Below, piece after piece: positions 12,764-63,585 of a DNA stretch of 64,000 nucleotides. The stretch is taken from positions 5,766,001-5,830,000 of the forward strand of contig CM120642.1 of NCBI GenBank assembly GCA_051362555.1, read 5' to 3'. Position numbers and translations under genes: made by a program. A model generated the notes under the pieces. The model did not search any database and was not told the origin of the DNA. It saw only the letters and a list, made by a program, of their open reading frames with translations. This DNA is from Lingula anatina. Lineage: Eukaryota; Animalia; Brachiopoda. Position 1 is the first letter of the stretch, and the number at the start of each line of letters is the position of its first letter.

Positions 12764-12821
<58 letters not shown>

Positions 12822-31368: not shown

Positions 31369-31406
<38 letters not shown>

Positions 31407-37526: not shown

Positions 37527-40500
37527 CTACGCATCGGCATATAATTTCTTGACGGAATAAGGAACTTTGGACCACTTTTTCCTTGATTGCTTCACCCCGC
37601 GTTCCTCAGTGTAAAATGCGCTAATCTTTAAACAAGGGTAGCCCTTCAATGTGTTTCCCCAGTCTTGTTCGCACACTTTGCAGTAAATCTTCTTAATACC
37701 GAGTGCTCTCTGTTGACTGTTATGATGATCTCGGAAAAGGACGAAATTAGAAGCGAAGTCGGGATCTGGATTGACGTAGGATGATCCAATTGTACAAATA
37801 TCAGAGAGGTTGCATACGCGCCTTCCGCACAGCCCTTTGCAGATGAGTGTTACGTCGTCGGTGCGGTTTGTCTTTTTTTGTTCTTCCATCATCTCCCGCT
37901 TTTGTTTTCTTCTGTGGGCATCTTCACGCTGGAAGTCTTCAACAATCTGCAACATCTGTTCTGAAGGTATTTGCTGTATGCTAGAAACGGCCATTTTTGT
38001 GAGCTGTTCTAATAAAACATTCACTTCATGCTTCGCTGTTGTGTTTGCCGCACCGATAACTGCAATGGTACTTTTCGTTGTGCGTGCACGTCCACGTGAT
38101 TGAATGCTGTATATGTCATCAAACATGTGATCGTAGATAACAACCATGCCGCAGTTGGACTCGTGAATTCCTTCCCCACCGACACTTGTACTAATCAATA
38201 CTTTTGTTTCTCCCGATTCAAATTTCTTCAGTATTGCCGTCTGTGTCTCAGGTGACATCCCGCCCTTCTCCGATGATTTTATTCCCATAAACACATCGGC
38301 ATTGAGCTGATGCAAATCTGTAGCATTGTTTATCCATCGTTTCATCGCCTCGGCTGCCTTTTTAGTCTTGACGAAAATCATTGCTGTAATTCAATTAAAA
38401 ATAGTTTCACCATGTTTAATATTTGATAGAAATTAAATACTGACGGAGTAGACTCCTTTCCTGTTTCATAGAGAACTGGAAACTCGTCTGTATTTTGTAC
38501 ATTGGTTTCCAGAGTTTTCAATTAGTAGAACTAAGATTGCCATCTTTTTTTAAACATTTTCCAAAATGTTACACTTTGTAACTTACCTCTAAATGGAAGG
38601 AAATTTTCTTCCTGTTTCCTTTGTTTGGTCAGTACCTGTTCTTTCAGAAGCTTTAGTTTTGGGGGTGTCCTTTCATTTGACGCAAAAGAGCTTAGTTGTG
38701 GTACATTGTCTGAAAAAAAGCATGTAAGTGATTATAAATTTCGTATGGGAGAGATTTCGGTCCTTCATTTACATTTTACAAATGTTTCTAATTAAACTTT
38801 CTCTGCAAAATTAAAACTTTTAATTTTTATTTCAATGCTCGTTCCAAATCCTATATCTTTGTTGTTCATGTACACATGCACTCACAACGGCAACATTTGA
38901 TACATATTTCTATTTGTCATATAAATTCTTTCAATCATAAACAAAACATGCAACCTAATATTCAGACTTAACTATTTTATGCTTTCAAGTAGTGCTTTAA
39001 CTATAGCTGTTAAGGAGCATCTGTTATCTCTGTTATTGTGTTTCTGTTTAAAAATATAACTATTTGGTAAACGAGTGTCCAATACCTTTAAAAAGCTTTA
39101 GTAGTCTTCTCTCCATGGCTCCAAAACCACTTTGCCTTTTCTTGCGTTCCATTTCATTATAGAAGTCCTCCAGAGATTTAAGCCCATCTTCCATTCGCAT
39201 TGAGCTGCAGAACTCCATTGCTGAAACATAAGATTTTCAGTGAAAGTGTTGACATTTAAATTTTTGTGCAAGCTACATTAAACTGTTATGACAAATGCTG
39301 CTATCGAAGTAAACACCCCATGAAAACGATAGCCACCGTTATTACGTCTAGTAAAATCTGAAACCTTTCAGGGTATTTGCCAAAATCAACGATGATTTGC
39401 ACCGAGTTTTAGCCAAGCTTAAATTTGCAAAACGGCTATCTGTGCTCACCTGTCTCATTTTCAGTTTAAACATTTCATTTTGTTAAAGAAAATACATTAA
39501 CTCCCATAATTGTGTCGACTCTAATTGTACTAAACGGAGTATGATCTCTTATTAAAGGCCACTTTTTCTCTTCTTTATAACCTTAATGTCTGTCAGTGTA
39601 ATAGATATACCGTGCTTTGGCATTGCCAAAGAGAAAAAGTTTTTGTCCCAAGGAAACTATAGCGTAACAAAGCGTACATATTAAACTTACAAATCAAGAC
39701 ATCAATATGTCAAGTGTCTCACACATTATTCTTACCACTGTTATATTCTAACAAATGTTCCAAACACAAGAGGCAATCCCCGGTGTTAGGACCGTCGTCT
39801 TCAAGAAAAGCCTTTTTCTTCTCCTCTACAAATGACATGTATTCCTGTGTGCCCTTGGTACTGCCCGTAGAAACTTGTATCCTGCTTTCTATCTCACCCA
39901 TCATGGACGCCAAAAGGTCATTGAATGGATTCTTTCGTTCCTCCACCTCAATGCAAACCTGGTCTATGGGCTCCAGTTTCATTTGGTTTAATTCTTCCAG
40001 GTTGTCCTTCACCGTAACAATGCGACGGGCGTCTAGATTGGCACAAAGCTTAAGAATGTGATGTGCAACACTTTCTGCGACTGGTCGTTTTCCCCCTCCA
40101 GGACTGGCGGTCAGCCCAACGATCTGTGGTAACTTTCCCTCCCCTGTTTTACCCAACTTCAACTTCTGTTCAACGTAAAATGACATGATTTGATTGTAAG
40201 GGTGGTCATTGTCTGCCTTGCAGTGATGGCACTCATCGAAGATGATTAGGGAGAAATCCATAATACTAACATCCTTCGACTCCAGTGAATTTTTCAAGAT
40301 GTTGTCAACGACTATAATGATGTCTTTGCGTCGGAGAAGTACACTCAGTGGCACATTCGAGTTTGACGCACCGCTGCGTTTGCCAGTGCTCCATAGCGGC
40401 ATGTATTTCTTGAAGTGTTTGAAGGTTTGTTTTAGGAGGGCAAACCGTCTGGTAACAAAGGCCACTTTTGGTAACTTTGAACTTTGTGTGTCCACGACGG

Positions 40501-41032
40501 CCTTCAGTTGAGTAACTTCGTCAACATTATTGCTGTCACGAACAGCAGGCGCAGTATGACAAGACGTTACGCTAGACGGGTTCACAGGTGTTTTCAATCG
40601 AGTGACGTCGTCGTCGTCGTCTAAAACTTTGGGCACAGTATTCCCCAATGAGGTCGCAGCCGTTTTCAATTCAGTTACATCATCATCTCCCCTGCCCGAA
40701 GTTGCCGCAGTCATCGTAGAAGCACATCTCTTCTCGAGGTGGTTTTTGGCAATCATTAAAGCCACGAGGGTTTTCCCGCTGTTTGGTGGAGCGTAGATAA
40801 TGCAGTTCAGCCCATCCATCGCCGGCTGAGCAAGTTCCTTCTGGTACGCCCTTGGTTTCAGGACTTCTGGCTGGATGCTATATTAAAGATATTATTATAT
40901 GCACGCGTATTTTATATTTTGTGATATATAAATTAAAATGAAAATAAAGACAGTGATAATTTTATGAAAAATTCCAACAATATTGAAACTTTTTATTGCT
41001 GATTATCATCTGCGAACATCTGCGGTAAATTA

Positions 41033-41063
<31 letters not shown>

Positions 41064-44000
41064 ATATTTTGCCAGGTAAATTACAAGGAACTCCTTCCAA
41101 GTAATTGTGCCATCATTTTTTGTTAATTAATCTTATTGGCAGCAAACCGCACGAAATAAGTACATGCATATAGGAGCTAGAAGTATATTTCATTGTAAAA
41201 ATAAAGGGAATTTCAAATACGTACAATTGTTAAAGCAAAATATGTACATGTATTACCTCAGAGTGTTTACAGAACCGAATTTGCTTTCTTTCCAACGCAT
41301 GTCTTCCAGCATCGAGGACAGATCTCTAGGTGGAGCCACCAATTTGCCTTTCCCGTTACCTAATTAATAAGAATGAGTTGAATTTTTTGTGTGGATGCCC
41401 GATATCTGTCACATCTTTTTTAAAATATTAAAATATGGTGATGTCAAAATAAAATGTATTTCTAATTATCTTCATATTTAGGTAAATGTTGTGATTCAAT
41501 TGCTGCTGCATTTGGCCACACATTTCACACCATTCACGAAGAAAATGAACATTTGGTTTGAACAGGACATTAAGATAAGTTATGTGTCCTTATTTAAGCA
41601 TACTATACCTGGGAAGAAATACATTTTCTTGCATAATGTATGAGTGACTTCCGACATCTGCTTCTGATTTTTGGGCGTCGATAATCGGGAAACGTGACTG
41701 TTAACCTAAAGATTGTACATGAATAAGTTGAGGAGCAGAAAACACACTATAAATCAACATTTAATATAAAACATACATGTCTCCATTCAGATAATTTCTG
41801 ACATTTACAAGAGTGAAAAGAGCCAAACTGGGGGACAGAAAATGTGCGTTCTGCCAAAATAAGCATGTTTCCAAGATGGGAACCTCTCATTGGTGTATTC
41901 TACTTATATCCGACAAATAAAATGGAACTTCATTCGAATTTATTTTCAAAAGGGACAACAAAATTATTATGTGAAGTACATATAAATCTGAGAGCTATGA
42001 TGACCTAAAAGATGTAAGTTTGATGAGATGTTTTCCAGTATGGAACCATCCATTTGAACGTTTACATATTTGGCGAGTTTAACATCAATATCATTCTCAT
42101 GCCACTCCTTCGTTTTTTATTGGTATCACAATTATGTCTTGATTCATTTATATCAATTAGATATTATTTTATGAACTTCAGTGATTCTTCGTGGAATAAG
42201 ATATGAAAAAAAAGAGAAGAAAGAGGAAAGCACCGCCAAAAAATCAGTATTTAAAACTTCATTGAGTAATTGTGTTCTGATAGGTCAAGCACTGTTGAAC
42301 TCGGAAAGATGTTCTCCCTCATATCTATAACAAGCATATGACGCTTAAAGGGATAATAACTCTTCATTTTGGCAAAAAAATGAATTTTCCTGGAGTAAAT
42401 AACAATTTTCCCATACTTACCAATGGTTAATGAATCCATTTTTACATTCAAAGTTAGTCCCTGGTTTTTTTTCTAAAAAGTTTGGTTTTTTTGTTAAAAT
42501 CTCTTAAGAGATTATAACAGAGTATAGCCATCAGTGGAGGTCACGTGATCTGAAGACAATCTCAGATATCAGAATAATAGCTATAACTGCTGTTTTTGTC
42601 GTAAAACAGAATATATTATATTTCTATGAGTTATTCACAATGTTTCTATTGTGAAATATAGATCTCATACGAAGAGTTATTGTCCCTTTAACTGACGCGA
42701 TATAAGTTGGCGCCTGGTGACTAAGTTTTGGCACCTTTGCAATGTTGTTGGCATACAGAGAAGCTAAGATGAATCAGCCGAAAACTGCAGCAAATGCACA
42801 CAATACTTTGAGGTCAAACAGGCTGATTACATTACTATCTTCAGGCAATATATATCGTATTTTTTTTCGTTTAGTTGGACTTAATGTCGCTAAAAAATTC
42901 TGACAAAATCATATGGACTTGCTTGGCGCCTAACCCTATACATTCACTGTATTTTTCATGGGTGCATGAGGGTGTACCACCCCCCCTCCCCCGCACTCTC
43001 CTATAAGTGACTGCATGGCTAATATTGTACATCACCTGTGTAAACATCGACACCACGTCCTCCTGACATGAAAGTTTACTGAAAACATCAACTATGGCTT
43101 GGATGAACCACGTGCCCTTCTTTGCCTCTCGATATGAAACGTATTCTGAAATAAAAAGAAATCTGAACAGGTTTTATGTTGGGATATACCAAAAACACTT
43201 TTTTGCGACTGTCACAGTTGCTACATGTACACGCATAATCCAAAACACCAAATAAAAAACGAACAACACTTACCACTTCCACATTTTTATACCTTTAACG
43301 TTTTTGCTTTGTTGGAATGATTGGATGGTAGTCTATAGCGTATTACTACAATTTAACAGCTGAAAAACAGTTTAGCTATTTTTACCTTCTGTTGTTGCCT
43401 TTGCAACTAGTCGGTCGCTGTTGGTCGGACGGATGTCGTTTCCATATGCTTCTGCGTCCACGCACACCGTATTTTCGGCGCCTACATTAGATTTAAATGT
43501 CAACAAATTCGTCATACTTTATGGTTTCCTAAATACATGTACGATATAGGACAAATTAATTTATTAAAATACATTTTAACACATTTGTTGAAACATACGG
43601 TTTTAACAGGTAAAGCAGCCTGAGTTTAAGGTCAATCAGGGTGTTCTTAAAGTGGGGGTGGGTGGGGGGTGGGGGGTAAATCCAAAGTGCGGGCAATTCT
43701 TGAGCATAAAAACAATAAGTTTTTTCCTGGGGTCAACTTTCAAAATTTGACAATTACTAATAATACCCAATCCCTGTTGCATTTGATGAAAAGGGTGCGA
43801 AATAATTTCTAAGTTCCTGACAAACTCATCGATTTTGCCTGACCTTATTAGGTTTATTTTCAACCACGAAATGAAACATGCCGTGCTCTCTATATGAAGA
43901 GCAGTATCGCTTGTCTGTGGCGCACAATGCGCGGTTGCGTTTCATATAACAAAAAGAAAATAATTATAATAAATTTGAACAATTTTACTCTCTACAATCC

Positions 44001-45121
44001 CTTTTTCGATTAAAAATAAGAATGACAATACCAGGCGAATCTGTTTCCTCTTCCTCCTCACTTTCCCCTTCATCAGTGCAGATAGCACCTTCGTCCCTCT
44101 TCTCTGGAAACATGAAAACCCCATCTTTACTCAGTAATTTATAACAGAATGTTTTGAAAGGCAAAAATTAAATTGATGACAGAAAGACAAATGAAAAAAA
44201 ACTGATATAAAAGGGAGGGACTTACTTCCTTGGCACGCCTGGATAAAGAACAACTTTGGCTTTCCTCTTAATCCGGGGCACGATTTGTTATTAAAGAAGC
44301 TGAAAATCTCCTGGTAATTCACAAATTTTAAATCCGTTCCGTATACAATCCCTTTATCTCCGTGACTGAGAATTACAAACACGAAGGAGTCAAGGGATTC
44401 GTGCACAGGATTTTGACTTTCTTCTCGTAAAGCATCTTTGATCTCCTGTAAGAAAATAATATAAATAATATAAAAACATTAAAAAACAATATAAGTTAGA
44501 AATGTGATTAACAATTTTCTCACGTAAATTATCTGTGTTCATAATTGACAATATTTAATATAATCAAACATAGTTTAGAAGGTTCAGCAGTTCAGTTATT
44601 GCAAGAAGACGCTTAATCCAATCATTATAAACAGATTTGCAAGACGTCACTTAACCGAATCAATATAAAATGATAACTAGAAGAAAAAGATTTCTTTCAC
44701 GTATCAAATCAAAGAAATAAAAAATCAATTGATATTGAATATCAAGTGATAAATCATTTGAAATAGCATATGGTTCAATGTCACTGAATTATCATAGATA
44801 ACAGCGATTCTTAAGTTCATGAAGTTTTTCATCCACTCGATACATTAACTTGGGATATTTTTTATCCACCCGACACATCATCCTGACTATGCTTACCTGT
44901 GCTTTTAAATCGTGTTTGACTACGACCTGATAGTGAAGTCCCGTAAATAATTTCTCCAACATGGCGACGTCGTGCTCTGTTCCACGTCGATCTCTTTTCC
45001 CGTCAAACTTTTTGTTGTTTATGACTAATACTCTGCCCCTTGGTGACGATATGTTCTTGTAATTCTGCAAAGACAATAGGGTTGGGATATATAACATTGC
45101 AGCCCACATAATACCCGTAAC

Positions 45122-45161
<40 letters not shown>

Positions 45162-46829
45162 GGAGAGAGAGAGGGGGGGAGAGAGAGAGAGGGGGGAGAG
45201 AGGGAGGGAGGGAGGTCTTCTCAGCATCTACTGTGACTTTTACTTTCATTTGTAACACAGATCATTAAAATAGAGAAAGTTAAAATAACCTTCAATTTTA
45301 TAGATTTTACCTTCTCAAAATCCGTACTGTGTTCTCTGTAAAACGATTCTGAGCAAGGGGGGATTTTCAACCCAATGTTTTCGTCTCCATCTGAATAACA
45401 TACAATTCTTTCAGTGCCATGTTAAACATAAGTCACTTGTGAATAAGCCACGTTGGAAGTCAATTATTAGTTTTTTTTTCAGCAAGTTTCATTTGTGCAA
45501 AATCACGGATCCAATATGTGAACTGATGAGATAATAGCATTCAACCTTACTGAAATAAAACAAGAACGTACCAATATCCTCGCTCCCAGAGCTCTCCCAT
45601 TCCCCCTCGTCCATATCTCGCCGACTTTCCTGAAACTCTTCAAAAAATATCAAAAGCTGTACAATTTCCATATATAGAGGCATTCATATGCATATCGCAC
45701 CATGGAACAGACGATAATTGCAGAAATTTAAACATCACAACTCAATTACTTATTTTGTCCTTTCGTGCTCAACAAGAATGTGATTTTAAAACATGGATTT
45801 TCAAGGCAGTAGGAACAGTAATCGGCAATAATTAACCTCGAGGATTGTGTATGAAGTTTATCTTAACTTACCATTTTCCAAATCCACAGCCAATTGCTTA
45901 AAAAATGTGTCACCCGCCTGTCGTAAAGCACGAACGAGATCTCGAAACCAGGACTTGCGTGACGGCAGGTTGTTCAGAATATCCAGTATCCGTCCAAGCG
46001 TTTCCTGCTGCGTTGAAGGACTTTCAGTACTATTGCCAACAAGGTTCGCTAGCACCGTGAACAAGCGTTCTCTTTGGACACCATTAAGTTTAGGGATTTT
46101 GTATTTGCGTATTTCTCTTAGTACGCGGTCCTCTGGTTCCTCTTTCACGATGATATCCGCTCTAGAATTATCTTTGAAATACAAAATACATCACAGGTGT
46201 AAATTAAAAAGCAACCATCAACCAAAGATAACTGATATATGTTGCTAAAAACAATTATAGAATAGCTTCCTTATAATAATAATAATAATTTATTCAGTTG
46301 ATACATATAACATATACGGCAAAGATTGGTTTCTGTCGGAGCTCTCAAAAGTGAAATATGAAACCATTTGAGTGAAAGATGTAAAAATAAAATGATTAAT
46401 AAGGAATATCTTTAAAAAGACTTTCCGAAGAGCTGCTTAGTATATCTTGTACGCCATCAGTTAATTCTTTGTAAAGTTCACTATTTGCTATTTTAGAATA
46501 ATTCCTTGGAGCATATGAAAAGGTAACGGTCTATAAAAAAATGTCCGTGATGTTGTCTTAGCTTTTAAATTTTAGGCCATTCTTTTGTCACCTGCTGTAT
46601 ATAACAAGAAATACATAGATTACATTACGTATACTATTACTCTATTTAGGTGAACTACATGTAGGCCTTCTGCATTTGTCTTGAACTAAAGTAGATCGAG
46701 TTTTTGGTCCAAAGATTTAAACCAATCTTCCGGTTAAAGTTTCTTTTGGTGATAAGAAGAGCTTTCAATAATGTTCTTACCTTCAGGGGAAAACGTTTGT
46801 GGCTCTTCCATTGCTTCCACTGAAGCCAT
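37527..46829 (-). CDS. CARD-like + caspase (p20/p10) + RIG-I-like DECH helicase + CTD fusion protein, copy 1 (~1205 aa, 15 coding exons)
   Basis: Exons 46829-46781,46171-45872,45637-45572,45390-45311,45064-44897,44445-44226,44103-44032,43481-43386,43145-43036,41705-41609,41359-41257,40877-39736,39220-39086,38709-38587,38383-37527; all GT-AG, phases match, 3618 nt. Motifs: PRGRVLVINN, RRGT, LSHG, QACQG, VSYR, GTWFIQ, KKMYFFP; RAYQKELAQPAM, PPNSGKT, DECHH, GLTASP, IFVKT, QSRGRAR, CKGLC..CKVC..DWG..PCLKI..KKW. Confidence 0.9.
42349..42687. mobile_element. Kolobok/T2-like MITE, copy C
   Basis: TTAA|AGGGATAATAACTCTTC ... GAAGAGTTATTGTCCCT|TTAA; very similar to copy B. Confidence 0.85.
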
Positions 46830-47320
46830 GACTTTGTGTAACAGATATCGACTGAAAACAAATAAACTGGATGAAATACAGGAAGCAGTTTATTTTCATC
46901 AGCATACTGGTATCACATACAGGAGTATCAGGAGTATAGCAGTTATCATTTTTTCCACTCCTATCTCGGTCTTTCTACTATTTTTGTTTAATCTTGTATT
47001 TGGTTTATGTTATCCATCTAATATCATTATGTTAACATTTCCTTTTGAATTGCGCAAGAGGACGTGGTTGTCGAAAGGGAAACATTTAAAACCAAATCAA
47101 TTAATCAAAATAGTGTAAAACATCGAAAGCAAGTGCGGGGACGGGTCGTGCAATGATTCCTGTGTAGGAAAAAAATCGACTTGGTAGGAAGATCTAGAAT
47201 AAGACACATAGCTTCAAGGTTTAGGATACGGTTAACCCCCTGTCAATAGAAGGCCTCAATCAATAGGAGAGCAGCCTATTTTAGGACTACGAAAACTCCC
47301 GTTATCTTCTGATAATCAAT

Positions 47321-48175
47321 TTAAGGATATTGTAACCCTTTATTATCATCCAGATACCGAAAATGAGGTTTTTTACCTGCACAGGGGCGGATCCAGGAGT
47401 ATTTGAAAGTGGGGTCCGCGGATGCGAAGCCGACCCTCCCCCCCCGGCTCGGAAATTTTAGAGGGCGAACGGAGCCATTTGGTACGGTTTAAAACTATGA
47501 TTCCCCTAGTCAAAATTCTAATTTCAAAAGGGGACCAGAAAACGAAGGGGGGATCAGCACCCCCCTGATCCCCCTCTAAATACGCCAGTGCCTGCATCTT
47601 ATTATTTAAGTATGCACCTGTCTTTGTGCTGATTTAAAGCAAAGAAAAAAAAACTATATATAAAATATCGGCGTTTATATTTCTTGTTGCAATGTATAAG
47701 CATAGGCAACTCCATGCTTTAATCGTCAATTTAACACCTTTCTATTTTGAGGTGAGGTTGCAAGTCGACCAGTTGAGTACGGGCTACAATACCGTGCCGT
47801 CATTTTGCTTAAATGTTTTGTTATGAGCCCCTAATTACAGATTTTCATTAAACAAAGGCATTATTTTGCTTTATCAACCATAAAATCTGAAGTAAAACTT
47901 TTAAGAAAAATCGCTGGCACGATTTTGGAGAACCAAATCGTGTCATTAAATCGGCGTTGAAACTGTGATCGTGAGTGCTCAGGCAAAAGAGATATTTGAA
48001 AAACAGATTTTCAATTTTTACCCAAAAATCGCAATTATTACGTCACCCGTAAGGTCGACATGTGTAAATATTTATAAAGTCAGTCACTGAACACTCACGA
48101 TTTATCTATTACTCAAAAGAATGTATGTAAGACAGTAAATAAGGAGTTTTAGGCGAACCGTGACAGTATCCTTAA
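47321..48175. mobile_element. TTAA-flanked TIR element (TTAAGGATA...TATCCTTAA); related sequence at ~55830-56227 and 63888-64000
   Basis: Terminal inverted TTAAGGATATTGT / ACAGTATCCTTAA; internal blocks are shared with 55830-56227. Confidence 0.6.
47382..47590. mobile_element. CAGGGGCGGATC-type MITE with 6-bp TSD, nested in the TTAA element
   Basis: CCTGCA|CAGGGGCGGATCCAG ... CTAAATACGCCAGTG|CCTGCA; the homologous site near 55862 is empty. Confidence 0.8.
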
Positions 48176-48568
48176 CCAGTATAGGCGTAATTAATAGGCC
48201 TAACATTCAAATTTAAAGAAGGATCAAATAAATAAATAAAAAAAAAACTAATAAATAATATTTAAATGACTACTTGGCTAAGTGATTTTTTAACATTTTC
48301 TGACGGTGTTAATCCGTTATTGCATTCAGAGAGAGTCCTGTGGAGTTGGGTCGATCTACGTAGGCCGATATTTTTATTGGGAATGAGCCCTCACCTTAAT
48401 ACATAGGCCTACATGTAGTCCTATATGCATTGTACATTGTACTTGAAGCTAACTGTCAGGGGCCAGAAACATACATTTTTTTTTTAAATATTTTCTTGGA
48501 GCACTAAAGGTTTTAAGAGAGTCCCTGTGATGTAATAAATTTTATAATTAACACGTCACAAAACCTAC

Positions 48569-48840
48569 CTGTTTTAATCAGCTATAATCAGCGTCAAAAT
48601 AGACTTCCGTTACTATATTGGGTGGTTGTACAATTAGCTATAGTATTGCGTCTTGATCAGTCAGCGCTCAGTCGTCTCAAATGGGTCAGTGCTTTGCTAC
48701 GAAACCCAATGATCACCCTTTATACCAGCAAATTTTGTTGGATTTTCCGTCTTGTCTGGTTTCGCTTTGATTAACACGTAGGATGGGTTTCTGGTTAAAA
48801 ATAATCAATGGATGCTATTTTTAAAACATGGAACTTTCCG
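48569..48840 (-). promoter_or_regulatory. Putative promoter and first non-coding exon of copy 1, with IRF-E, kB-like and ETS-like motifs
   Basis: Donor-like CAG|GTAGG at 48569; ACGGAAGT at ~48603-48610; AAAGCGAAACC (minus strand, 48758-48768); GGATTTTCC at 48740-48748 and GGAACTTTCC at 48830-48839. Confidence 0.45.
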
Positions 48841-49094
48841 TACGTCCCACAAGGCGTTTAAAATTTCAAATTTAATCAATTTATATTACACCCACCCTGA
48901 AGTGATATTCATTTTCTTGTGTTATAGTTCATTGAGTATGGTCTTTAATTTCAGATAGTGAATGCTATCGTAACGCAATACATGAAATACGCTTGACTAT
49001 GGGATTTGGGATATCTTGGAAAAAAGTGGCCTTGAAATGGAACAAACAATACGTCGATACTGACAGTCGTGATTTCTGATTTATGGTTATCAAA

Positions 49095-49240
49095 GTGGGG
49101 GCGTCTCGATAGACCGAAGGTTCATTGGTCCGAAGGTTCATTGGTCCGAAAAGTGGTAACATTTTCATCGATTTTTTAATCACGGGTTCATTGGTCCGAA
49201 GGTTCTATAGTGAACATTCGGACCAATGAACCTTCGGACT
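49095..49240. repeat. Short element with GGTTCATTGGTCCGAA direct (x3) and inverted copies
   Basis: Repeats at ~49119, 49135 and 49185; inverted copy TTCGGACCAATGAACC at ~49217. Confidence 0.7.
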
Positions 49241-49419
49241 CTCATCAAGGGAAAGCTGTTGGTAAAAATAGGCAAATTAATGTAATATTGCTGACGTGGA
49301 TAAAAGATAAGCAGTTTGCAGATATGTGACCTAAGTACTCCCATGATAATTGACCTAATTTGACACAAGATGTTTTGATGATTAATATATTGCAAAAGTT
49401 ACAGTTATTACAGGCCTAC

Positions 49420-50050
49420 CCCCGACAACTGAAGAGCTAATGTTTTTGTCACCGTTGATGCGTTTGTTTGTCTGTATACAGCATTACGCAAAAAGTCATG
49501 GGCGGATTTTGATATTTTCAGGAAAGGTCTCAAATTAAATGGCCCAAGCCAAGGAAGATACAATGTATAATTAGATTTTGGTGGTGATACATTAATTAAT
49601 TAAATAATTAATTTAATTAATTATGTACAGATTTTGATGACATTTTAGTAAAGGTCACAAGTGGACCAAGGAAGTAGCCTAGTGATTAGACTTTGGTGAT
49701 GATGCCGTAGTTAATTAATTATTTATTAAATTTCAGCATAGGTTATTGAAATTTTCATTATATAGTTCAGAAGTGGAAAAAAAGGAAATTAATAGATTTT
49801 GGTGATGATACGTTAATTATATTTTTATTTTATTTTCTGGAGAGGTCACAAATGAACCAGAGAAGAAATGCATTAATTAATTAATTATTAAAATAATTAA
49901 TTCAATTTTCAGGATAGGTTACAAATGTGCCAAGGAAGAAATTATTATATTTTGGTGATGATCAATTAAATAATGTTTTATTTAAGTAATGATTAATAAT
50001 TAGTTTGTTTATTATTTGCCTTTGTGGAGGTTGCACTGAGTGCTTTATAG
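49420..50050. mobile_element. Non-autonomous Helentron/Tsp-like repeat with tandem core units
   Basis: Short TTTG/TCTG microsatellite followed by ~4 repeats of a ~120-bp unit containing CCAAGGAAG...TTAGATTTTGGTGATGAT; reverse-orientation relative at 57315-57655. Confidence 0.55.
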
Positions 50051-51957: not shown

Positions 51958-54900
51958 CTAAGCATCGGGATAAAATTTCTGAATGGAAAAAGGAACACTG
52001 GACCACTTCTTCCTCGATTTCTTTACACCTTGTTCCTCAGTGTAAAAAGCGCTAATTTTTAAACAAGGGTAACCATACGACTGCAACGTGTTACCCCAGT
52101 CTTGTTCACATTCTTTGCAGTGGATCTTCTTAATACCGAGTGCGCTCTTTTTAGGTTCATGATGATCTCGGAAAAGAACATGATTGGAAGCGAAGTCAGG
52201 ATCTGGATTGATGTGGGCGGTTTCGATCTTGCGGATATCAGAGAGCTTGCATACTCGCTTACCACATGGTCCTTTGCAGATAAGATTTATGTCATCAGTG
52301 CGGATTTTCTTTTTCTGTTCCTCCATCATCTCCCACCTTTGTTTTCTTCTGTGGGCATCTTCATGCTGCATGTTGTTGATCTTCTGCAACATATGTTCTG
52401 GAGGTATTTGCTGTATTCTAGCAACGGCCATTTTTGTGAGCTGTTCTAATAAAACATTCACTTCATGCTTCGCTGTTGTGTTTGCCGCACCGATAACTGC
52501 GATGGTACTTTTCGTTGCGCGTGCACGTCCACGTGCCTGAATACTGTATACGTCATCAAACATGTGATCGTAGATAACAACCGTGCCGCAATTGGACTCA
52601 TGAAGTCCTTCCCCTCCAACACTTGTACTAATCAATACTTTTGTTTCTCCCGATTTAAATTTCTTTAGAACGGCATCCTGCTCGCCATATGACATCCCGC
52701 CTTTCTCGTTTGAAGTATTGGTTCCAAAAAGAACGTCAGCATTGACCTCTTTCAAATCTGTGTCACTGTTTATCCAAACTTTCATGGCCTCTGCTGTCTT
52801 TTTTGTCTTGACGAATATTATAGCTGTAAATTATTTGAAATTAATTTTGATTTGTATTGCACTATTTAAGATGTCAAAGAATATAATGGGTAGACTGAGT
52901 AGAGACGTCTCGAGTTTCAGTATCCGTCTTCCCCGGTGCCATCTGAAACTCGGGGTGAATTCACGTTAAATTTCAATCCAACTGATTTAGTTTTCAACGT
53001 GCAGGTCTGAACTCGCCACTATTTTTTTTACATTTAGCATAAGTTGTGGTATACTGTATATTGTAGCCTACCTCTATTTCCTTCGCATTTCATCTGACTA
53101 GTAAGAATCTGTTCTTTCAGAATCTTCAGTTTCGGGGGTGTTTTTTCTTTTGACGCAAAAGATCTCAATTGTTGCACATTATCTGTAAAAAAAAATGAAG
53201 TTTTAAATTCGATTTGGCATGAGAAAGAAACTGATCTGCCATCATTTTCAACTGTGTATAGTGGGGCTTTCTCTGCAAAAAAGAGCAGCTTTTTACTTTA
53301 GTGTTGCCCGCAAGAAAATGCAGTAGTATCGAAGTAGCAAAGAAGCATTAACGCAGTAGTGGTGTGGAGCATATTTGCAGTAGAAATGCAGTATAGCCTA
53401 CTGCAATTCTACTTCAAAAATTACATAGGGTTGTACAGAGGAGGAGCATTAATGCAGTAGATTAGCAGCATGATAGAAGCATGTTTCAAATATGCTAATT
53501 AGCTCCCACATCGAAGCAGATTTGAAGCATGTTTGCAGTATGATTGCAGTAGTCTACTGCGCTGGAGTATCTACTTCGTTTTCGTGCGGGTGGTTTTGAA
53601 TATGTTTACACTGCAGTGCTGCAGCTTTAATGTGTAAGTAATGCTGATCAATCATAAATATCTTTTATTCATAAACCAAACAAAATGCTTTAAAGTAACA
53701 AAACTGGTAGTACTACTGGTACATGCATATGTCCCACTGTTGAGAGAATTCTGTTGTTTTTTAATTGTGCATCTTCTTAGATATATATAACAATATGAGT
53801 GTTGCATACCTTCAAAATACGTCAGTAGTCTTTTTTCCATTTCTACAAAACCACTCTCCCTTTTATTGCGTTCCATATCATTATAGAAGACCTTCAGACA
53901 CCAAAGTGCATCTTCCATTCGCATCGAGCTACAAAACTCTATCGCTGAAACATAAGGCTATCTGTAAATGTTCTGACATTAAATTTTTTTATGCAAGCCT
54001 CATAAAATTGTTATGACAAAACAATGGTCCCCAAACAAGTTAGCACCTTTGTAAATAGAGACAAATGACACCAATATGAAGTCTTTCAAGGTACCTGCTG
54101 TCACTTAAGATGGTTTAGATTGAGTTTAAGCTATGTAAAGTCTGCTCAAACTCTATTTCAAATTTGAAAAGCAGCCGCCTAAGATTAATTCTCATTTTGA
54201 GTTCGAGCATTTTTGCTTTTGTTGGAGTAATTCCAACAACATTTGCAACATTAAATACTACTTAACGGAGTAAGATGTATTTTAAAGGCCATCTTTCTTT
54301 CATTTCTCTATAACCAGACTACCTTTTAGACGCACTACAAAGATGTACCGGGTAATGACATTGTAAAAGACACACGTGGATATCGAGCATATTTTAACTG
54401 GACTAATACAAATCAAGATACCAATGACAAGTATTTCACGTATTATTCTTACCATTGTTATATTCATACAAATGATCCAAACACAGGAGGCTTTCCAGGG
54501 TGTTAGGACCGTCGTCTTCAAGGAAGGCCTTTTTCTTTTCCTCTACAAATGACATGTATCTCTGTGTACCTTTAGTAATGTCCGAAGAAATTTGGATCCA
54601 ACTTTCTATCTGAGTCATCATGGCTGCCAAATGGTCATTGAATGGATTCTCTCGTTCCTGCACCTCAACACAAACCTGTTCTAAGGGTTCCAGTTTCCTT
54701 TGGCTTAATTCGTCCAGGTTGTCCTTCACCGTGACAATGCGGCGGGCGTCTAGATTAGCACAAAGCTTAAGAATGTGCTTTTCAACACTTTCAGCGACTG
54801 GTCGTCTTCCCCCTCCAGGGCTGGCGGTCAGCCCAACGATCTGTGGTAACTTTCCCTCCCCAGTTTCACCTAGCATCAACTTCTGTTCGATGTAAAATGA

Positions 54901-57900
54901 CATGATTTGATTGTAAGGGTGGTCATTGTCTGCCTTGCAGTGATGGCACTCATCAAAGATGATTAGGGAGAAATCCATAATACTAACATCCTTCGACTCC
55001 AGTGAATCTTTCAAAATGTTGTCAACGACTATAATGACGTCTTTGCGCTGGACAAGTAGACTCAATGGCGTATTCGAGTTTGACCCACCGCTGCGTTTGC
55101 CAGTGCTCCATAGTGGCATGTATTTTTTGAAGTGTTTGAAGGTTTGTTGCAGAAGGGTAAACCGTCTGGTAACAAAGGCCACTTTGGGTACCTTGGAACT
55201 ATGTGTGTTCATGACTGCTTTAAGTTCAGTAGCGTCCTCAATATGACTGCTGCAAAGAACAGCAGGTACAGTCTGGTAAGATGGTCTGCTAGAGTTGACA
55301 AGTGTTTTCAGTCGAGTATATATAACCTCGTCCGAAGCTTTGGGCACAGTATTCTGCAATGAGGTCGCCGCAGTTTTCAATTCAGTTAAGTCATCATCTC
55401 TGCCTGAAGTTGCCGCAGTCATTGTAGAAGCACATCTCTTCTCGAGGTGGTTTTTGGCAATCATTAAAGCCACGACGGTTTTTCCGCTGTTTGGCGGAGC
55501 ATAGATAATGCAGTTCAGCCCATCCATCGCCGGCTTAGCAAGTTCTTTCTGGTACTTTCTTGGTGTCAGTACTTCTGGCTTGATGCTATATTAAAGACGA
55601 ATGTTTTAATTCATTAACTTCACGCATGAGTAATTTCATTTGGAGATATGATATGATATGATTATACATAACATGTAAATAAGCCAGTGATATATATCGT
55701 ATATGCTTGTGTGTATGTGTGAATTTTTCTAAGCAGGCAAATTACCAAAGACTTTTATTATGTAAATTAAGTTTGTTACCAAATCCGTGACATAGATTCA
55801 CGATTATGCCTTAGGGGTGATGTAAGGGTAATTTATCATCCAGATTTCAAAAATGTTTTTTCCTGCATCTAATAATTCAATATGCATCTACCTCTGTGCT
55901 GACTTAAAACAAAAAAAACCCAAAATATGAAATAACTGCGTTTATATTTCTCGTTGCTGTTATTAGCAAAGGCAACTCTAAGCTTTTATCGTCAATTTAA
56001 CTTTTTATTTTTAGGTTAGATTGCAATCGGTATGGGTGTCATACAATTGGTGCTTGATTGGTGTTCGTGGGTGCGCAGGTAAAGGAGAAATTAGAGAAAT
56101 CGATTTTTCAATTTTTACCCCTAAATTACAATTATGACGTCACCTGTCAAATTGATTTAGTCACTAAACACTGAAGATTTATCTGTTACCCAAAAGAATG
56201 TTTTTGGCAAACGCTCACCGTATCCTAATTTTGTTCATAACTCTGACAATGTACACCATTCAATAAGGTCATGTAAGAAATACAAATGTATATAATTGTC
56301 AAAACAAGAGGCATATGTGTGATGTATCATTGTAAAAGCAAATGCATATGTAGTACCTGATTGGTGATTCAAGTGATGGTTCAGAATCCAGTTTAATTTT
56401 TTTCCAAGGAACTTCCTCGAGCATCGAAGACATATCTGTATGAGGCTGCTCAGATTTGCTTTTCCCATTGCCTAATGAATAAGAATTGGCTAAATTATCT
56501 GTGGAGATAACCCATATACTCGTGTGAAGGGTGTTTAAATATGTCTTTGTCCTAATGGCCTTCCAACAATAAGCAAAACGTTTCACAGCATTCATATAAA
56601 GAAGCACCCATGAACATTTGGTTTTAAAGAAAAGGTTTTACGAAGTTGCATAAATGGCTATTATATACATGGATATGAGCGCCATACCTGGGAAGAAGTA
56701 CATTTTCTTGCATAATGTATGTGTGACTTCCGACATCTGCTTCTTTTTTTTTGACGTCGATAATCGGGAAACGTGACTGTTAACCTAAAGATTGTACATA
56801 CACATAATCAGTATGTACATTACACATATGCAATAGGTATAAAATGAAAACTAGAATGCAAAGCTGGCAAATACACGTAACGGGTACTGTACTTAGAAAT
56901 TTAGCAGAGAAAACACATACTTCAACAATATTTACAACAAGAACTTCTGCAAAAGTGCAATCATGCCAAATTTAAGAAGAAATCTGCCTTTTAATCAAAC
57001 AAAGACCCCCAAAAAATTAAAATGGAATTCAATATACAGTTTGCCAGTTATAGGGTGAACAACCTTTGTGTCGTTCGGCGACGATGTCACGAACAGACCC
57101 AGTGCTAAGAATGAATATGGACACAACCAGTGGCTTAATATAAAAATTTTCACTCTATCTGCTGCCTTCCTAAAATTGGTTTTCACACCAACAAAAACCA
57201 TACGTTAAAGCAATTCAATTTAACAACTACTTCGTATATGCCTTGATACTACACTAAAATCAAATATTGGGGAGGGGGGGTCAAACAAGTATCCAGTTTA
57301 TGAAGAAAGCGCAGACCTCCGCCAAGGCAGCAAAGTCTCATTCTATAATGGTTTAGTTTTTTATTTTTGATTATTGATTGATTATTGATCCGGATCACCA
57401 CCACAAACTAATCATCTGTTCCTTGGCCCACTTCTGACATTTCATCAAAATCGGTCCATAACTTATTTTTTTGATTTTTGCTTTTTGATTATCGATTGAT
57501 TAGTGATCCAGATCACCACCAAAAACTAATCACTTCTAAGTTAACCCATTTCTGACCTACCCTGAAAATTCCATCGACATTCATCCATCACTTTTTGAGT
57601 TATGTTGATGACAAATAAACAGGGGTGAAAACATAACCCCCATGGCGGAGGTAATTATTGGGAAAAAAGAACTGATGTCAAGCATGTTAAATTCTGGGGA
57701 CAACAGAAAAATGACCAAGGGTCAAAAGGTAGCTTTATTACTATGCGTTGCTGCGTAAATTTGTTCGATGTGATTGGTGGAAAATTGTTTTACACGACAA
57801 TATCTATTTGACGCATTATCAGGCATAGACCAAGTGCCGAGTGACCTACATGTAGTTTTGTCAGGAGATAGCTAAAGGCTGAAGCAAACAGAAGACAGAA

Positions 57901-60900
57901 ATGTTAACATTAATAAGCAGGATGTATAAACTATCTTCAGGGTTTATATAATTCCTGTAGTTGGACTTCATTATATATTCAACAAAATTTCTAACAAAAT
58001 AATTAGGCCTGACAACACAAGTTTTTCATGGGCCTCTTATGCTGTTACATTCCGTATCTCCCCTAATAACTGACTGCAACTTATGTTGTACATCACCTTT
58101 GTTAACATCGATCCCACGTCCTCCTTACATGCATGTTGACTGAAAACTTTAACTATGGCTTGGATGAACCACGTGCCCTTCTGTCTCGTTCGATATGAAA
58201 CATATTCTGAAAACATATATATAGAAAATTAATCAGCGTTGAAAAATACCAGAACAAATTTATATGCGTCCGTCACATAGTTGCATTGCTAAAATCTAAT
58301 ATGTCTAATCAGCCCCCCCCCCCCCTGGGATTTGAGGTGCAAAAAAAATCGCAAAGGTGAAAAAAAATTGCAAAGTTGGTATCAATTCTGTGAGAAAATG
58401 CACTCATGGCCACTAGACAATCATTCAACAATCTGTTTACAAAGTTGTACTGTTTTTAGCCAACTCAGTTCATGCTAAAAAGCTCACCCTCCCATAGGGA
58501 GCTATCCCCCAGGCTGTTATCAGGTTATTGTTTACCCTGACTGTTTGCCCAACAAAGCTGGGAGGGCTGTTTTGAGCCTGCAGAGAACAGGTTGTATGGC
58601 CGTATCAGTATGTGGGATCAGTTTACATGGTGTTTAGCCTGGTCATGATGTAAACTGCCCCACAGCCTGTGCACAATAGCAAGAAACGTTATTCCTGATC
58701 CTTAGACAATCTGCGAAATGAAGTCCAATTGGCGTGCTGTGTTGAAAAAATGACTTTACTTATGGCAAAATGAACCCACAATTTCTGACTTCTGATTGAG
58801 CAATAAATAACAATTTTAACTTTGAACTTTTAAAAAATGCACCAGAATGCAGTATTATACATACAGTTTTTCAAAATTTTCCACACCGTCAGAGGGAGAC
58901 ACCCCCTCCCCCTCGGGGGCTCAGGCTACGGCCCTGCTAATACGAACAAAAGTCGCCATTTCCGCATTTTATACCTTAAATGTGTTTGCTTTGTTGCACA
59001 TTCTACGTGTTGTATTGTTGGGATGATTAAAAGAAACGGTATTACCATAGCCTGATAATAAAATCAAAACAAGAAAACCATTTTTTACCCTCTGTCGTCG
59101 CTTTGGCAATGAGTATATCACTTTTAGTTGGAAGGATGACTTTTCCATGTGTTTCAGCATCCACGTACAACATATCTCCGACGCCTGCAGTAGCTTTACA
59201 TGTAAACAAATTTATAACGCTATGATTTTTAATATGATATAGGACATACAATATGTATATACAGTATTAGCAAATTTCCACACCGAAAAGAGTTAAAATA
59301 TAGTGTAAACTAAGATAAAATTAGGCTAGGTTGGTTGAGGAGAGGCGACTAAAAGGGTAGGTAGACGGAATTTATTATTTGCAGCTAGATTTTTGGGGTC
59401 TGTCGGGGTTTCTAAGGAGGTGTCACAGTGTGGGCAATTTTGAGCATAGAAACAGCAGAAAGGTTTGTCCAATAGTCAATTTTTTACAGTTGCCAAAACA
59501 ATGCCCCTTAGAAAAAGTCAAAGCTTTGTGGACAGGTAATTCTTTGCTAAAATCCTATGATAATTGCATTTCAAGTTTATTCTTCTTTTCGTGGCAGTAT
59601 CCAAAAGGGAAAATCATTTAACAAGTTGCAAGTACATGTAGAATGTATATATAGCTTACAATATTATAATGGTATCTTATAGCAACAGAGAAAACACAAC
59701 AGCAATCGTTCGAGCCATATTTCACACATGCTTATATTCTCCAGAGAATGAAAAGATTATAGACTTGGCCTGCGTAAATAAGAAAGATATGTTACCGGGC
59801 GAATCCGTGATCTCTTCACTTTCCCCTTCATCGGTGCAGATAGCACCGTCGTCCGTCTTGTCTGGAAACATTAAAACCCCGCTTTTACTCAGTTATTGAT
59901 TACAGAATATTTTTGAGTTTAATTGTCAATCACATGCATTTAGGATGTAAGTGTCACAAAGAAAGCATTCTTGTATCTGCTACTCGAGTTTGAAACCTAG
60001 GAACAATCTAAATTTCTCACAATAATGAAACAAGTGCACAATTTAGTTGTTCCTTTCTTATAATAATCTGACTGAAATTGACCCCTTTCTACTATTGCAG
60101 GATTTTCCTCATTTTAAACAGTATAAATAGTGTGAAATGAAATAGTATAAATTGCCATGGAAAGAAAAGTTTATCTTGAAGACGCCAAGAAATAAACAAA
60201 AAAATGGAAGAGGAACTTACTTCCTTGGCATGCCTGAATGAAGAATAATTTTGGTTTCCCTCCTAATCCGGGGCACGATTGGTTATCAAAAGGGCTTAGA
60301 ATCTCCTGATATTTTACAGATTCAGAATCTGTTCCGCGTACAATCTCTTTTTCTCCGTGGCTGAGAATTACACACACGAACGAGTCAAAGGATTTGTGTT
60401 CAGGATTTAGACTTTCTTCTTTTAAGGCTTCTTTGATATCCTGTTTAAAGAAAAAAAGGCTTGTACACTGTGGTTATCTTGGAAAAGTTTTTTACATATG
60501 TATATTTTCTTTTACGTGTTTTTTAATATTCTTAATCGATAAATATTAAATATCAATTGCAACTTAATTAAAATGTGAAGCGTTTGGTTGCAAGTCACTG
60601 AACATTTTCGTCCTAAACCTTCACCCGGAAGAGAATATTTTTACAAATTTAACCAAAAACAAAAATCCAAGATCATATTGAACATAAAATGATAAATCAT
60701 ATAAAATAATACATAGTTTAGTCTCATCCAATTACTATGGATGACTTTGAAGCTATAAAAATCTGAAGTTCGAAACATTTTTGACCACGCGATACATAAA
60801 CATTTATATCTTGAGAATTATTATCAAGCATGATAATCAGAATGGTTTGTTTTTGAGAAAAGCAAAATCAAAGTTTGTTACATTTTTATCTTCTCGATGC

Positions 60901-63585
60901 ATACACAGGGGCGGATCCGAATTATATAAGGGGTCCGAAACGACAGGTCTCTGTTGTGAAGCCGACTATCGCCCCCTTGGTGTGGGGTTCGGGACCGGCT
61001 GAAGGACAGAAGTTGGAGGTATAGCTAACACGCAATTTGGTAACATATGTAACGGTACCAAATTGCGTTTATATTGTTATTGTTGTTTACGCTGTTAGTT
61101 GTCTGTCGGCGCAACTATGTGAGTGTGTGCAGCGTCATGCATGCGGGAACGTTTGTTTCAACGTTGCACATTCCTCTTTGTTAATTTGTCATACCGATTT
61201 TAATATCCATCGTTACATACGTTACCTGTGTTTTTATCATTAATAACTGTTAGCTGATTCCAACTACTGGTGAGCCAACACCTATCTGCATATTATGTTA
61301 CCATAAAATAGAAATGGGACAAAAGAGGGAAGTTGTCTTCAAACGATTTGTAAAAATCATTCACATGATACATACGTCACCAGGGGCTGATCCAAGATTA
61401 TTTGAAGGGGGGGGGGGTCCGGAACGACAGGCCTCTGGTGCAAAGCCGACCATCGTCCCCTTGGTGTGGTGTTCGGGCGGTGTACCTAATTACCGTCCAC
61501 AACTGAGGTGGGTAAGGGTCGACCTCTCTGACCCCCCTTCTAAATCCGCCATTGCATACATATTATCATGTATATTTTAGAGGCTAATTTTTGAAAAAAA
61601 TTCAAAGTTCGGAATATTTTTATTTTCTACCTGACTCATCATACTGGGTACCTGTGCTTTTAAATCGTGTTTGACTACGAACTTATAGTGTAGTCCCGTA
61701 AACAATTTCTCCAACATGGCGACGTCTCGTTCTGTCCCAAATCGATCGCTCCTCCCGCCAAAATGTTTGTTGTTTATGACTAATACTCTGCCCCTTGGTG
61801 ACGATGTGTTCTTGTAATTCTGCAAAGAAAATAGGGTTGAGATATATATTATCAGTAGGCCCTATGATTGCTTAGAAGCAGGTACGTCGTATAATAACCG
61901 CAACGCATTCAGAGAGAGAGAGACAGAAGGAGCGAGAGAGAGAGATGTCTACTCAGCATCCACTGTGATTTTTATTTCCATTTGTAACACAGATCCTTAA
62001 AATAGAGAAAACTGAAATGACCCTATCTTAAATCAATTTTATAGATTTTACCTCTTCAAAATCTGTACTGTGTTCTCTATAAAACGATTCTGAGCAAGGG
62101 GGGATTTCCAACCCAATGTTTTCGTCTCCATCTGAATAACATAAAATTCTTTCATGTGCCATGTTAAACATCAGTCATTTGTGAATAAACCCAATTGGAA
62201 GTCAAAAATTATGATTTTTCAGTAAGTTTCATTTATGCAAAATCATAGATCCAATAACTGATGAGATAATAGCATTCAACCTTACTGAAATAAAGCTAAA
62301 ACGTACCAATATCCTCGCTCCCAGAGCTCTCCCATTCCCCCTCGTCCATATCTCGCCGACTTTCCTGAAACTCTTCAAAAAATCAAAAGCTGTATCATTT
62401 CCATAAATAGAGGCATTCATATGCACATCGCACCATGAAACAGACGATAATTGCAGAAATTTAAACTTCACAACTCAATTCCTTATTTTGTCCTTTCGTT
62501 CTCAACAAGAATGTGATTAACATGGATTTTCAAGGCAGTAGAAACAGTAATCAGGACTAATTAACCTCAAGGTGGTGTTTCGTTTATCTTAACTTACCAT
62601 TTTTCAAAGCCACGGCTAATTGCTTAAAAACTTTGTCACCCGCCTGTCGTAAAGCCTGAACGAGATCATGAAACCAGGACTTGCGTGACGGCAGGTTGTT
62701 CAGAATATCCAGTATCCGTCCAAGCGTTTCCTGCTGCGTTGAAGGACTTTCAGTACTATTGCCAACAAGGTTCGCTAGCACCGTGAACAAGCGTTCTCTT
62801 TGGACACCATTAAGTTTAGGGATTTTATATTTGCGTATTTCTCTTAGTACGCGGTCCTCTGGCTCCTCTTTAACGATGATATCCGCTCTAGAATTTTCTT
62901 TGAAATAAAAAACACATCACAGGTTCAGAATAAAAAGCAACCATTAACCAATTTGGTAACTGAGATGTGTTGCTAAACAACAATTATAGAATAGATTCCT
63001 AACAATAATAATTTATTCTGTTGACACATACCAGTAAAATATACAGCAAAGATTTATTTTTGTCAGAGCTCTCAAAAGTGAAATATGAAATTATTTAAGT
63101 TAAAGATGTGAAAATAAAATGATTAATCTTCCGAAGAGCCGCTTAGTATATCTTGTACGCCATCAGTTATTTTCTTTATGAAGTTCAACATTTGCTATTT
63201 TAGAATAATTCCTTGGATCATATGAAAAGGTAACCGTCTCTCCAACTTGGAGACTAAAAATAAAAATGTCCGTTATGAAGTCTTAGCTTTTAAATATTAG
63301 ACCATTCTTTTGTCTACCCCGACTCATGATAATACTGCACTTGCTGTATATAACAAGAAATACATAGATTACATTACACTATTAGGCCTACTTTATTTAG
63401 GTGAACTACATGTAGGCCTTTTACATTTATCTTGAACTAAAGTAGATCGAGTTCTCGGTCCAAATATTTAAACCAATCTTTCGGTTAAAGTTTCATTTGG
63501 TGACAAGGAGAGCTTTCAATAAACAAATGTTCTTACCTTCAGAGGAAAACGTTTGTGGCTCTTCCATCGATTCAACCGAAGCCAT
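51958..63585 (-). CDS. CARD-like + caspase + RIG-I-like helicase + CTD fusion protein, copy 2 (~1203 aa, 15 coding exons)
   Basis: Exons 63585-63537,62897-62598,62372-62307,62131-62052,61819-61652,60440-60221,59861-59796,59184-59089,58206-58097,56784-56688,56471-56357,55585-54453,53944-53810,53182-53072,52823-51958; same phases as copy 1, 3612 nt. SHG, QACQG, DECHH and QARGRAR are all intact. A 5' UTR exon probably lies beyond the window. Confidence 0.9.
53307..53590. mobile_element. CMC/EnSpm-like MITE (CCC termini, 2-bp TG TSD)
   Basis: TG|CCCGCAAGAAAATGCAGTAG ... CTACTTCGTTTTCGTGCGGG|TG, with internal GCAGTAG/GAAGCAT repeats. Confidence 0.65.
57315..57655. mobile_element. Helentron/Tsp-like repeat, reverse orientation
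   Basis: ACCTCCGCCAAGG ... 2 core units GATC..GATCACCACCA.AAACTAATC ... CCATGGCGGAGGT. Confidence 0.55.
60906..61554. mobile_element. Composite CAGGGGCGGATC-type MITE with 6-bp TSD
   Basis: CATACA|CAGGGGCGGATCC ... TAAATCCGCCATTG|CATACA; a second 5' end lies inside at 61381; a related fragment starts at ~4163. Confidence 0.75.

Follow-up and report, generated by a model that had tools for sequence, protein, structure and literature searches.

Vertebrate RIG-I-like receptors (RLRs), MDA5, RIG-I and LGP2, are built on a Hel1-Hel2i-Hel2-pincer core followed by a C-terminal domain (CTD). In the brachiopod Lingula anatina eight RLRs have been listed, and caspase domains in Lingula RLRs were noted by Yao et al. 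(2022; PMC8998645, cited here and below for its accessible sections), who refer to Gerdol et al. (2018) and hypothesise that these receptors act in apoptosis, inflammation or pyroptosis. In a synthetic system, DRACO, engineered chimeras of a double-stranded RNA (dsRNA) binder and a caspase part kill infected cells by clustering on RNA (PMC3144912, likewise in its accessible sections). Here, we analyse a window of 64,000 nucleotides of L. anatina DNA (assembly GCA_051362555.1, contig CM120642.1, positions 5,766,001 to 5,830,000) containing two tandem genes, copy 1 and copy 2, each of which very probably encodes a single chain that runs from a CARD through a caspase and a linker into an RLR helicase and CTD.

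Both genes and their architecture were already in print between 2018 and 2022. Table S2 of Yao et al. gives XP_013415812.1 as LanRLR6 and XP_013415811.1 as LanRLR4, so that the novelty which a first-pass annotation of this window had thought possible does not hold. LanRLR6 expression was reported there to be highest in the digestive caecum. The accessible text of that paper (text, not figures, was compared) contains the caspase domain and the proposed death role for these same genes, and mentions neither a CARD before the caspase, nor checks of the caspase active site, nor loss of helicase motifs. Beyond what is in print are the RLR type of the CARD, the intact caspase residues, the residue losses in the helicase and the likely truncation of LanRLR5 by a contig end. 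No functional study of a caspase-RLR fusion was found in the literature searched, whose coverage left out subscription journals, in line with the first-pass annotation, which knew of none; the accessible sections of PMC8662601, PMC8195603 and PMC11251625 contain nothing further on the fusion.

Two tandem fusion genes

The coordinates of both genes and of the other features in the window are collected in Table 1. With exon ends set by coordinates, all introns are GT-AG, their phases are identical between the copies and each frame carries a single terminal stop; the two proteins are 78% identical. The first-pass annotation had predicted one open reading frame of about 1200 amino acids (aa) per gene, which is confirmed (1205 and 1203 aa, 15 exons each), and its junctions are correct by frame and phase: the p10 exon ends in phase 1 at 41609/56688, the linker exon begins at 41359/56471 and the helicase exon at 40877/55585 (copy 1/copy 2). 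The Pfam scan that it proposed finds Peptidase_C14 above the cut-off in three exon frames per copy and DEAD/ResIII, RIG-I_C, Helicase_C and RIG-I_C-RD in both copies, also above the cut-off, with CARD_2 below it (E 0.004). A tblastn search with the protein found no third copy in the window.

Table 1. Features of the 64-kb window, with coordinates counted from its first nucleotide.
Feature	Position	Strand	Details
Copy 1, LanRLR6, RefSeq XP_013415812	37527..46829	-	15 coding exons, 1205 aa; CARD-caspase-linker-helicase-CTD
Copy 1 exon 2, RLR-type CARD	45872..46171	-	Single death fold; phase 1-1
Copy 1 caspase module, exons 4-10	41609..45390	-	Phase 1 at both ends; His249, Cys292
Copy 1 linker exon, caspase to helicase	41257..41359	-	Phase 1 to 2
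Copy 1 RLR half, exons 12-15	37527..40877	-	Hel1 with 83-aa insertion, Hel2i, Hel2, pincer, Zn-binding CTD
Copy 2, LanRLR4, RefSeq XP_013415810/811	51958..63585	-	15 coding exons, 1203 aa; architecture as copy 1
Copy 2 exon 2, RLR-type CARD	62598..62897	-	Pfam and profile comparison
Copy 2 caspase module, exons 4-10	56688..62131	-	Phase 1-1; Peptidase_C14 196 bits
Copy 2 linker exon	56357..56471	-	Phase 1 to 2
Copy 2 RLR half, exons 12-15	51958..55585	-	Pfam and motif alignment
Intronless 509-aa frame with Condensation, PapA_C and alcohol acetyltransferase matches	26184-27713	+	Guanine-cytosine content raised (0.47)
DDE_1 transposase frame (2108-3280) and neighbouring frames, likely DNA transposon	335-3280	-	Open reading frames, Pfam
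C-type lectin, laminin-G-like and PAN/Apple-like exons (by eye), IgGFc-binding (Pfam)	~8500-16000, 29700-34900	+	

A search with one caspase exon gave, among the 120 matches listed, two RefSeq proteins of L. anatina that combine caspase and RLR domains. Copy 1 differs from XP_013415812 (P0124) at 13 of 1205 residues, without gaps, and copy 2 from XP_013415810 (P0122), which is three residues longer, at 12 of 1203 aligned residues. Identity is about 99%, order, strand and joins are alike, and we therefore take the window to be a haplotype other than RefSeq's, with the same intact frames.

That caspase and helicase belong to one chain is highly probable because the frame is unbroken, the splice sites are in place, the linker exon is under purifying selection and the RefSeq models of another haplotype agree. 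Between the copies the linker exon has a ratio of nonsynonymous to synonymous substitution (dN/dS) of 0.33 (confidence interval, CI, 0.10-0.71), and it is present in the RefSeq proteins P0124, P0005 and P0125; Yao et al. (PMC8998645) state that they checked the gene models on display against mapped reads. Two neighbouring genes, or transcripts that are mainly separate, with a CARD-caspase message that stops in intron 10 and a helicase that starts from a methionine in the linker exon, would fit the position of the p10 donor in the glycine codon where a related Lingula caspase (P0126) ends, the complete caspase with a short tail that read-through yields, and the conservation of that methionine. 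This arrangement is nonetheless improbable, as neither intron 10 (249/216 base pairs, bp, in copy 1/copy 2) nor intron 11 (379/771 bp) is long, intron 10 contains no AATAAA in either copy, the read-through tails past the donor are unrelated between the copies, and the acceptor and open frame upstream of the methionine are kept in both; RefSeq and Yao et al. also join the two halves. Similarity between the copies had been said to end at the p10 donor, and the blastn block does end there (41605/56684), but alignment better than that of shuffled sequence continues beyond it in intron 10 (score 54 against a shuffle maximum of 46), the linker exon (79 against 33) and intron 11 (69 against 60), and what is unconserved past the donor is the read-through peptide.

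Four RNA runs were aligned to copy 2, and in two of them reads fall at low depth on exons from either half. Among the 15 joints listed of 43, no junction-spanning reads were found in these runs, intronic repeats having filled those joints; this absence would fit separate transcripts. At four sites that distinguish the copies most reads carry the copy-1 letter, and RefSeq copy 2 has copy-1-like residues as well, so that the reads are unassignable to either copy. RefSeq further models isoforms X2 of both genes that start in exon 3 (45572-45637 and 62307-62372), read it in a different frame and leave out exon 4, with a CARD-less caspase-RLR chain as their product; exon 3 is 100% identical between the copies.

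Over the whole protein dN/dS between the copies is 0.35 (CI 0.29-0.42) at a dS of 0.33, with 0.38 (CI 0.25-0.56) for the caspase and 0.34 (CI 0.27-0.43) for the RLR half, values that indicate purifying selection on both; the Hel1 core stands at 0.30 and the CTD, lowest of the folded domains, at 0.20. The 5' parts (44852-47097 against 61611-63842), introns included, are far more alike than the rest. Since dS falls to 0.12 there and introns 1-3 are about 90% alike, compared with a dS of 0.33 overall, gene conversion has likely acted on the 5' ends.

How the fusion arose has been described before: in Yao et al. (PMC8998645), LanRLR4, LanRLR5 and LanRLR6 exemplify the gain of a caspase by exonisation. 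The start of LanRLR5 (XP_023931160.1, P0125) falls within the last caspase exon, and the protein is 98% identical to copy 1. It lies at 3436-7522 on contig NW_019774456.1, given as 8,903 bp, which leaves 1381 bp upstream, and in copy 1 the next caspase exon is 1379 bp away; according to the same paper, LanRLR5 expression mirrors that of LanRLR6 across all five tissues. Because of this identity, the near-equal distances and the matching expression, the "caspase-less" LanRLR5 is likely an allele of copy 1 cut by the contig end, a point that corrects the published account of the fusion's rise.

As far as the searched collections show, the caspase-RLR fusion appears confined to Lingula. Searching with the caspase region among proteins of 662-2109 aa gave 27 matches from 774 candidates, with RLR domains only in the two Lingula proteins. 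HMMER against 1.84 billion representatives gave, in its 150 best matches, 146 new proteins, 140 with the helicase, six with the caspase and none with both. The architecture search that had been called for thus finds no caspase-RLR protein outside Lingula among the matches listed.

Caspase, CARD and helicase modules

The caspase is complete: Peptidase_C14 scores 194 bits in copy 1 and 196 bits in copy 2, over profile positions 1-233 of 233, p20 and p10 included. Across 231 other caspases, 48 columns show conservation of 90% or more; the fusion caspase keeps 44 of these, the four differences being conservative. The catalytic dyad (His249 and Cys292, with the QACxG motif) is present, and so are Arg191, Gln290 and Arg356, which we take to be the residues of the Asp-binding pocket; with all catalytic and pocket residues in place the module is a predicted protease. 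Asp-Ser and Asp-Ala sites at Asp316 and Asp327 in the intersubunit loop are common to both copies and are likely self-cleavage sites. Asp139-Gly, between CARD and caspase, is also common to both, while the linker exon contains no Asp-Gly, Asp-Ser or Asp-Ala site that the copies share.

In a 22-row tree the fusion caspase groups with spiralian caspases linked to CARD or Roc-COR domains in a starred clade (99/98), and this branch separates it from caspase-3/7, -8 and -9. The best-scoring caspase outside the fusions (48%) is that of the Lingula Bcl-2-like-Roc-COR-caspase LOC106171421 (P0126). A 42-row tree, in which three caspase-8 rows consist of the large subunit only, groups the Roc-COR caspases with the fusions at 93/93, whereas the 22-row tree does not resolve this sister grouping; as the trees disagree on support, we claim no caspase donor. 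LOC106171421 and its Owenia counterpart CAH1786849.1 share the caspase clade with the fusions and likewise join the caspase to a nucleotide-binding switch; unlike in the fusions, the caspase there is C-terminal. Together with P0299 these two proteins (P0126 and P0245) are Bcl-2(-like)-Roc-COR-caspases of brachiopod and annelid origin that unite a death regulator, a GTP switch and a caspase in one chain. No description of this architecture was apparent in the literature searched.

Where RIG-I and MDA5 have tandem CARDs directly before the helicase, the fusions have one CARD and then the caspase. Exon 2, whose CARD_2 match lies below the Pfam cut-off, is modelled in copy 1 as a five-helix bundle (predicted local distance difference test, pLDDT, 74). 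The top five structural matches of the model are all death folds (Z 6.2-7.3), the best at Z 7.3 with a root-mean-square deviation of 2.7 over 87 aligned residues, which is below the tool's Z 8 caution level. Foldseek with this model gave no match at E 0.001, and the ESM Atlas with residues 1-165 gave no usable match. Against RLR N-terminal profiles exon 2 scores 19.7-22.2 bits and against caspase-CARD profiles 4.7-6.1 bits, the best of 200 shuffles reaching 6.9; for copy 1 the two values are 21.8 and 6.1 bits. Comparison of a CARD profile with 12 RLRs gave a probability of 54% over 33 columns, weak alone. On these profile scores the CARD is assigned to the RLR type, and its dN/dS is 0.31.

The closest helicases among the 150 best matches listed are those of single-CARD RLRs from hemichordates and amphioxus (XP_077993196.1, XP_002737903.1, XP_002737902.2 and XP_019624542.1) and of P0151, at 37-43% identity, and P0151-P0154 have one N-terminal CARD_2 matching the fusion's CARD. 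These hemichordate, amphioxus and P0151 receptors are without a caspase and, unlike the fusions, keep the motif Ic threonine and the motif Va aspartate. Exon 4 aligns with the region that precedes the caspase in P0126. Given an RLR-type CARD and phase 1 at both ends of the caspase module, this module was likely inserted into the intron that separated the CARD from the helicase of a single-CARD RLR, followed by tandem duplication.

The RLR half is a superfamily 2 helicase with a Hel2i insertion and a pincer, as seen from Pfam (DEAD/ResIII, RIG-I_C, Helicase_C) and from the alignment to MDA5, its best solved relative (E 3e-85), which also confirms the register of the motifs. Compared with 138 other RLRs, both copies keep the Q motif, the Walker A lysine, DECH and motifs III and VI, as well as the motif V threonine and valine. 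RIG-I_C-RD scores 54 and 65 bits, the four Zn cysteines are conserved and His1140, Lys1152 and Lys1173 of the CTD are kept. The core layout is common to the fusions and to vertebrate MDA5, RIG-I and LGP2; the fusions differ in having one CARD instead of two, an inserted caspase, an 83-aa insertion in Hel1 and altered motifs I, Ic and Va. The insertion is acidic, and among 296 proteins it is matched only within these genes; at about 40470-40720 and 55180-55430 on the minus strand, it consists of three loosely repeated acidic units with a dN/dS of 0.51. A whole-chain model of P0005, which has no CARD, gives high confidence for caspase, Hel2i, Hel2 and CTD and below 50 for Hel1, a value that is uninformative because the alignment had no relatives over Hel1. 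In P0156 (1093 aa) the RLR-type helicase unit occurs twice in tandem, and no CTD match is seen.

Readings of the fusion

What would switch on the tethered caspase? Initiator caspases are activated by dimerisation. We give roughly even odds to the reading that RNA-driven clustering dimerises the caspase, making the chain a self-contained antiviral switch that leads to cell death or cleavage signalling. The fusion chain would rest as a low-abundance monomeric zymogen and hold RNA chiefly by its CTD and by such helicase contacts as remain; its threshold would be higher, since the motif Ic threonine is gone. Neighbouring chains would then bring their caspase domains together across the linker of about 35 residues; self-cleavage of the caspase dimer would follow at Asp316 and Asp327, with the CARD perhaps released at Asp139. 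Because the linker exon has no shared cleavage site of the kinds considered, the small subunit would stay attached to the helicase, tying activity to the RNA-bound complex, and the CARD may have kept a part in adaptor binding or in clustering. DRACO may work in a like manner, as it combines a dsRNA binder with a caspase-activating part and kills the cell by clustering on RNA; it is synthetic and was presented with reference to PKR-type dsRNA binding, whereas the Lingula fusion is a natural RLR with a catalytic caspase (PMC3144912).

Several observations, besides the missing junction reads, weigh against this RNA-clustering reading. Of 70 conserved RLR columns, both copies have lost 8, the same ones in each. 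A loss of at least eight is found in only 10 of the 138 RLRs compared, and P0151-P0153, the nearest relatives, lose three each. Thr485 has become Pro (Thr in 128/136 RLRs) and the adjoining Gly486 Asn (Gly in 121/135); motif Va Asp994 is His (Asp in 131/136), and motif Ic Thr644 is Val in both copies, where 135 of 138 RLRs have Thr and none has Val. Conserved as it is, this threonine of motif Ic does not formally define the RLR family. Among positions 485, 644 and 994, one is lost in 16 of 138 RLRs and two in none. Numbered by offset from the MDA5 alignment, Thr644 likely corresponds to T347 of human RIG-I, and T347A abolishes signalling and the recovery of stimulatory RNA (PMC4733034, accessible sections). 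The motif Ic change thus likely removes an RNA contact that RIG-I needs to signal. The retained CARD, finally, offers a conventional adaptor route. The first-pass annotation had proposed dsRNA-driven dimerisation of the caspase through a normal sensor helicase, independent of adaptors. Its fusion is supported and clustering-induced dimerisation is still the best guess, but the retained RLR-type CARD leaves adaptor independence unproven, and of the normal sensor the core motifs and the CTD stand while several near-invariant residues of the RNA and ATP sites are lost, which weakens a simple RIG-I/MDA5-like trigger.

The same losses invite a different view of the helicase, as bait or guard: it would no longer sense RNA in the RIG-I way, and viral RLR antagonists, or canonical RLR filaments that it joins, would cluster the chain or release the caspase. 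The joint loss of Thr485, Thr644 and Asp994, absent from the 138 other RLRs, and the unique acidic Hel1 insertion would suit such a role, the Hel1 core is still under purifying selection, and other Lingula RLRs (PMC8998645) could sense RNA. We nonetheless hold it to be a doubtful possibility, as the ATPase core motifs, threonine and valine of motif V, the Zn cysteines and the basic CTD residues are kept, the CTD has the lowest dN/dS of the folded domains, and motifs Ia and Ib contain additional basic residues that could offset the lost threonine. Alternatively, RNA might be sensed with the output running through the CARD, the caspase adjusting or terminating the signal by trimming the CARD or proteins of the pathway, and being no death trigger. 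An RLR-type CARD under purifying selection and the conserved Asp139-Gly between CARD and caspase are compatible with this, as is the RLR-MAVS interaction reported to be conserved in oyster (PMC8998645); we regard it as unlikely, since the CARD is single and divergent (below the Pfam cut-off, with five predicted helices) and RefSeq models CARD-less isoforms of both genes. The fusion could also be recent, non-functional and in decay, given low expression (in the reads and in PMC8998645), degenerate helicase motifs and its occurrence in one species among the matches listed. This is very improbable and already largely refuted: neither copy has a stop or frameshift in either of two haplotypes, dN/dS is 0.35 over a dS of 0.33, and the odd residues do not differ between the copies. 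Because of this identity the helicase changes appear to be older than the duplication and held since, and so not decay. We tentatively consider, as a further possibility that we do not favour, a rewired RLR that has placed a caspase behind its own CARD and given up a key RNA contact, and that would fire on dense viral RNA only or bait viral RLR antagonists.

Neighbouring sequence and implications

Within intron 11 of copy 2, about 370 bp (55833-56201) are 73-79% like sequence at 47343-48124, upstream of copy 1, and pieces adjacent to this element lie upstream of copy 2 at 63872-63998. An internal promoter, considered on account of the resemblance to DNA upstream of copy 1, was rejected, as copy 1 lacks the element at this place and unrelated reads match it. 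It contains no interferon-type GAAA motif and is probably a repeat. Elsewhere in the window, the intronless frame with Condensation and PapA_C matches belongs to a domain family unusual for animals, and the lectin, laminin-G-like and PAN/Apple-like exons appear to form one or two large extracellular proteins beside the RLR pair.

If RNA alone activates the fused caspase, the Lingula protein would be a natural counterpart of DRACO and, of the known animal routes that lead from viral RNA to a caspase, the shortest, one in which RLR clustering drives an enzyme directly. If instead the receptor has been rewired, an animal RLR would act as an integrated guard with a direct protease output, and would be part of a wider spiralian fusing of one caspase clade to switches, RLR helicase and Bcl-2-Roc-COR alike.

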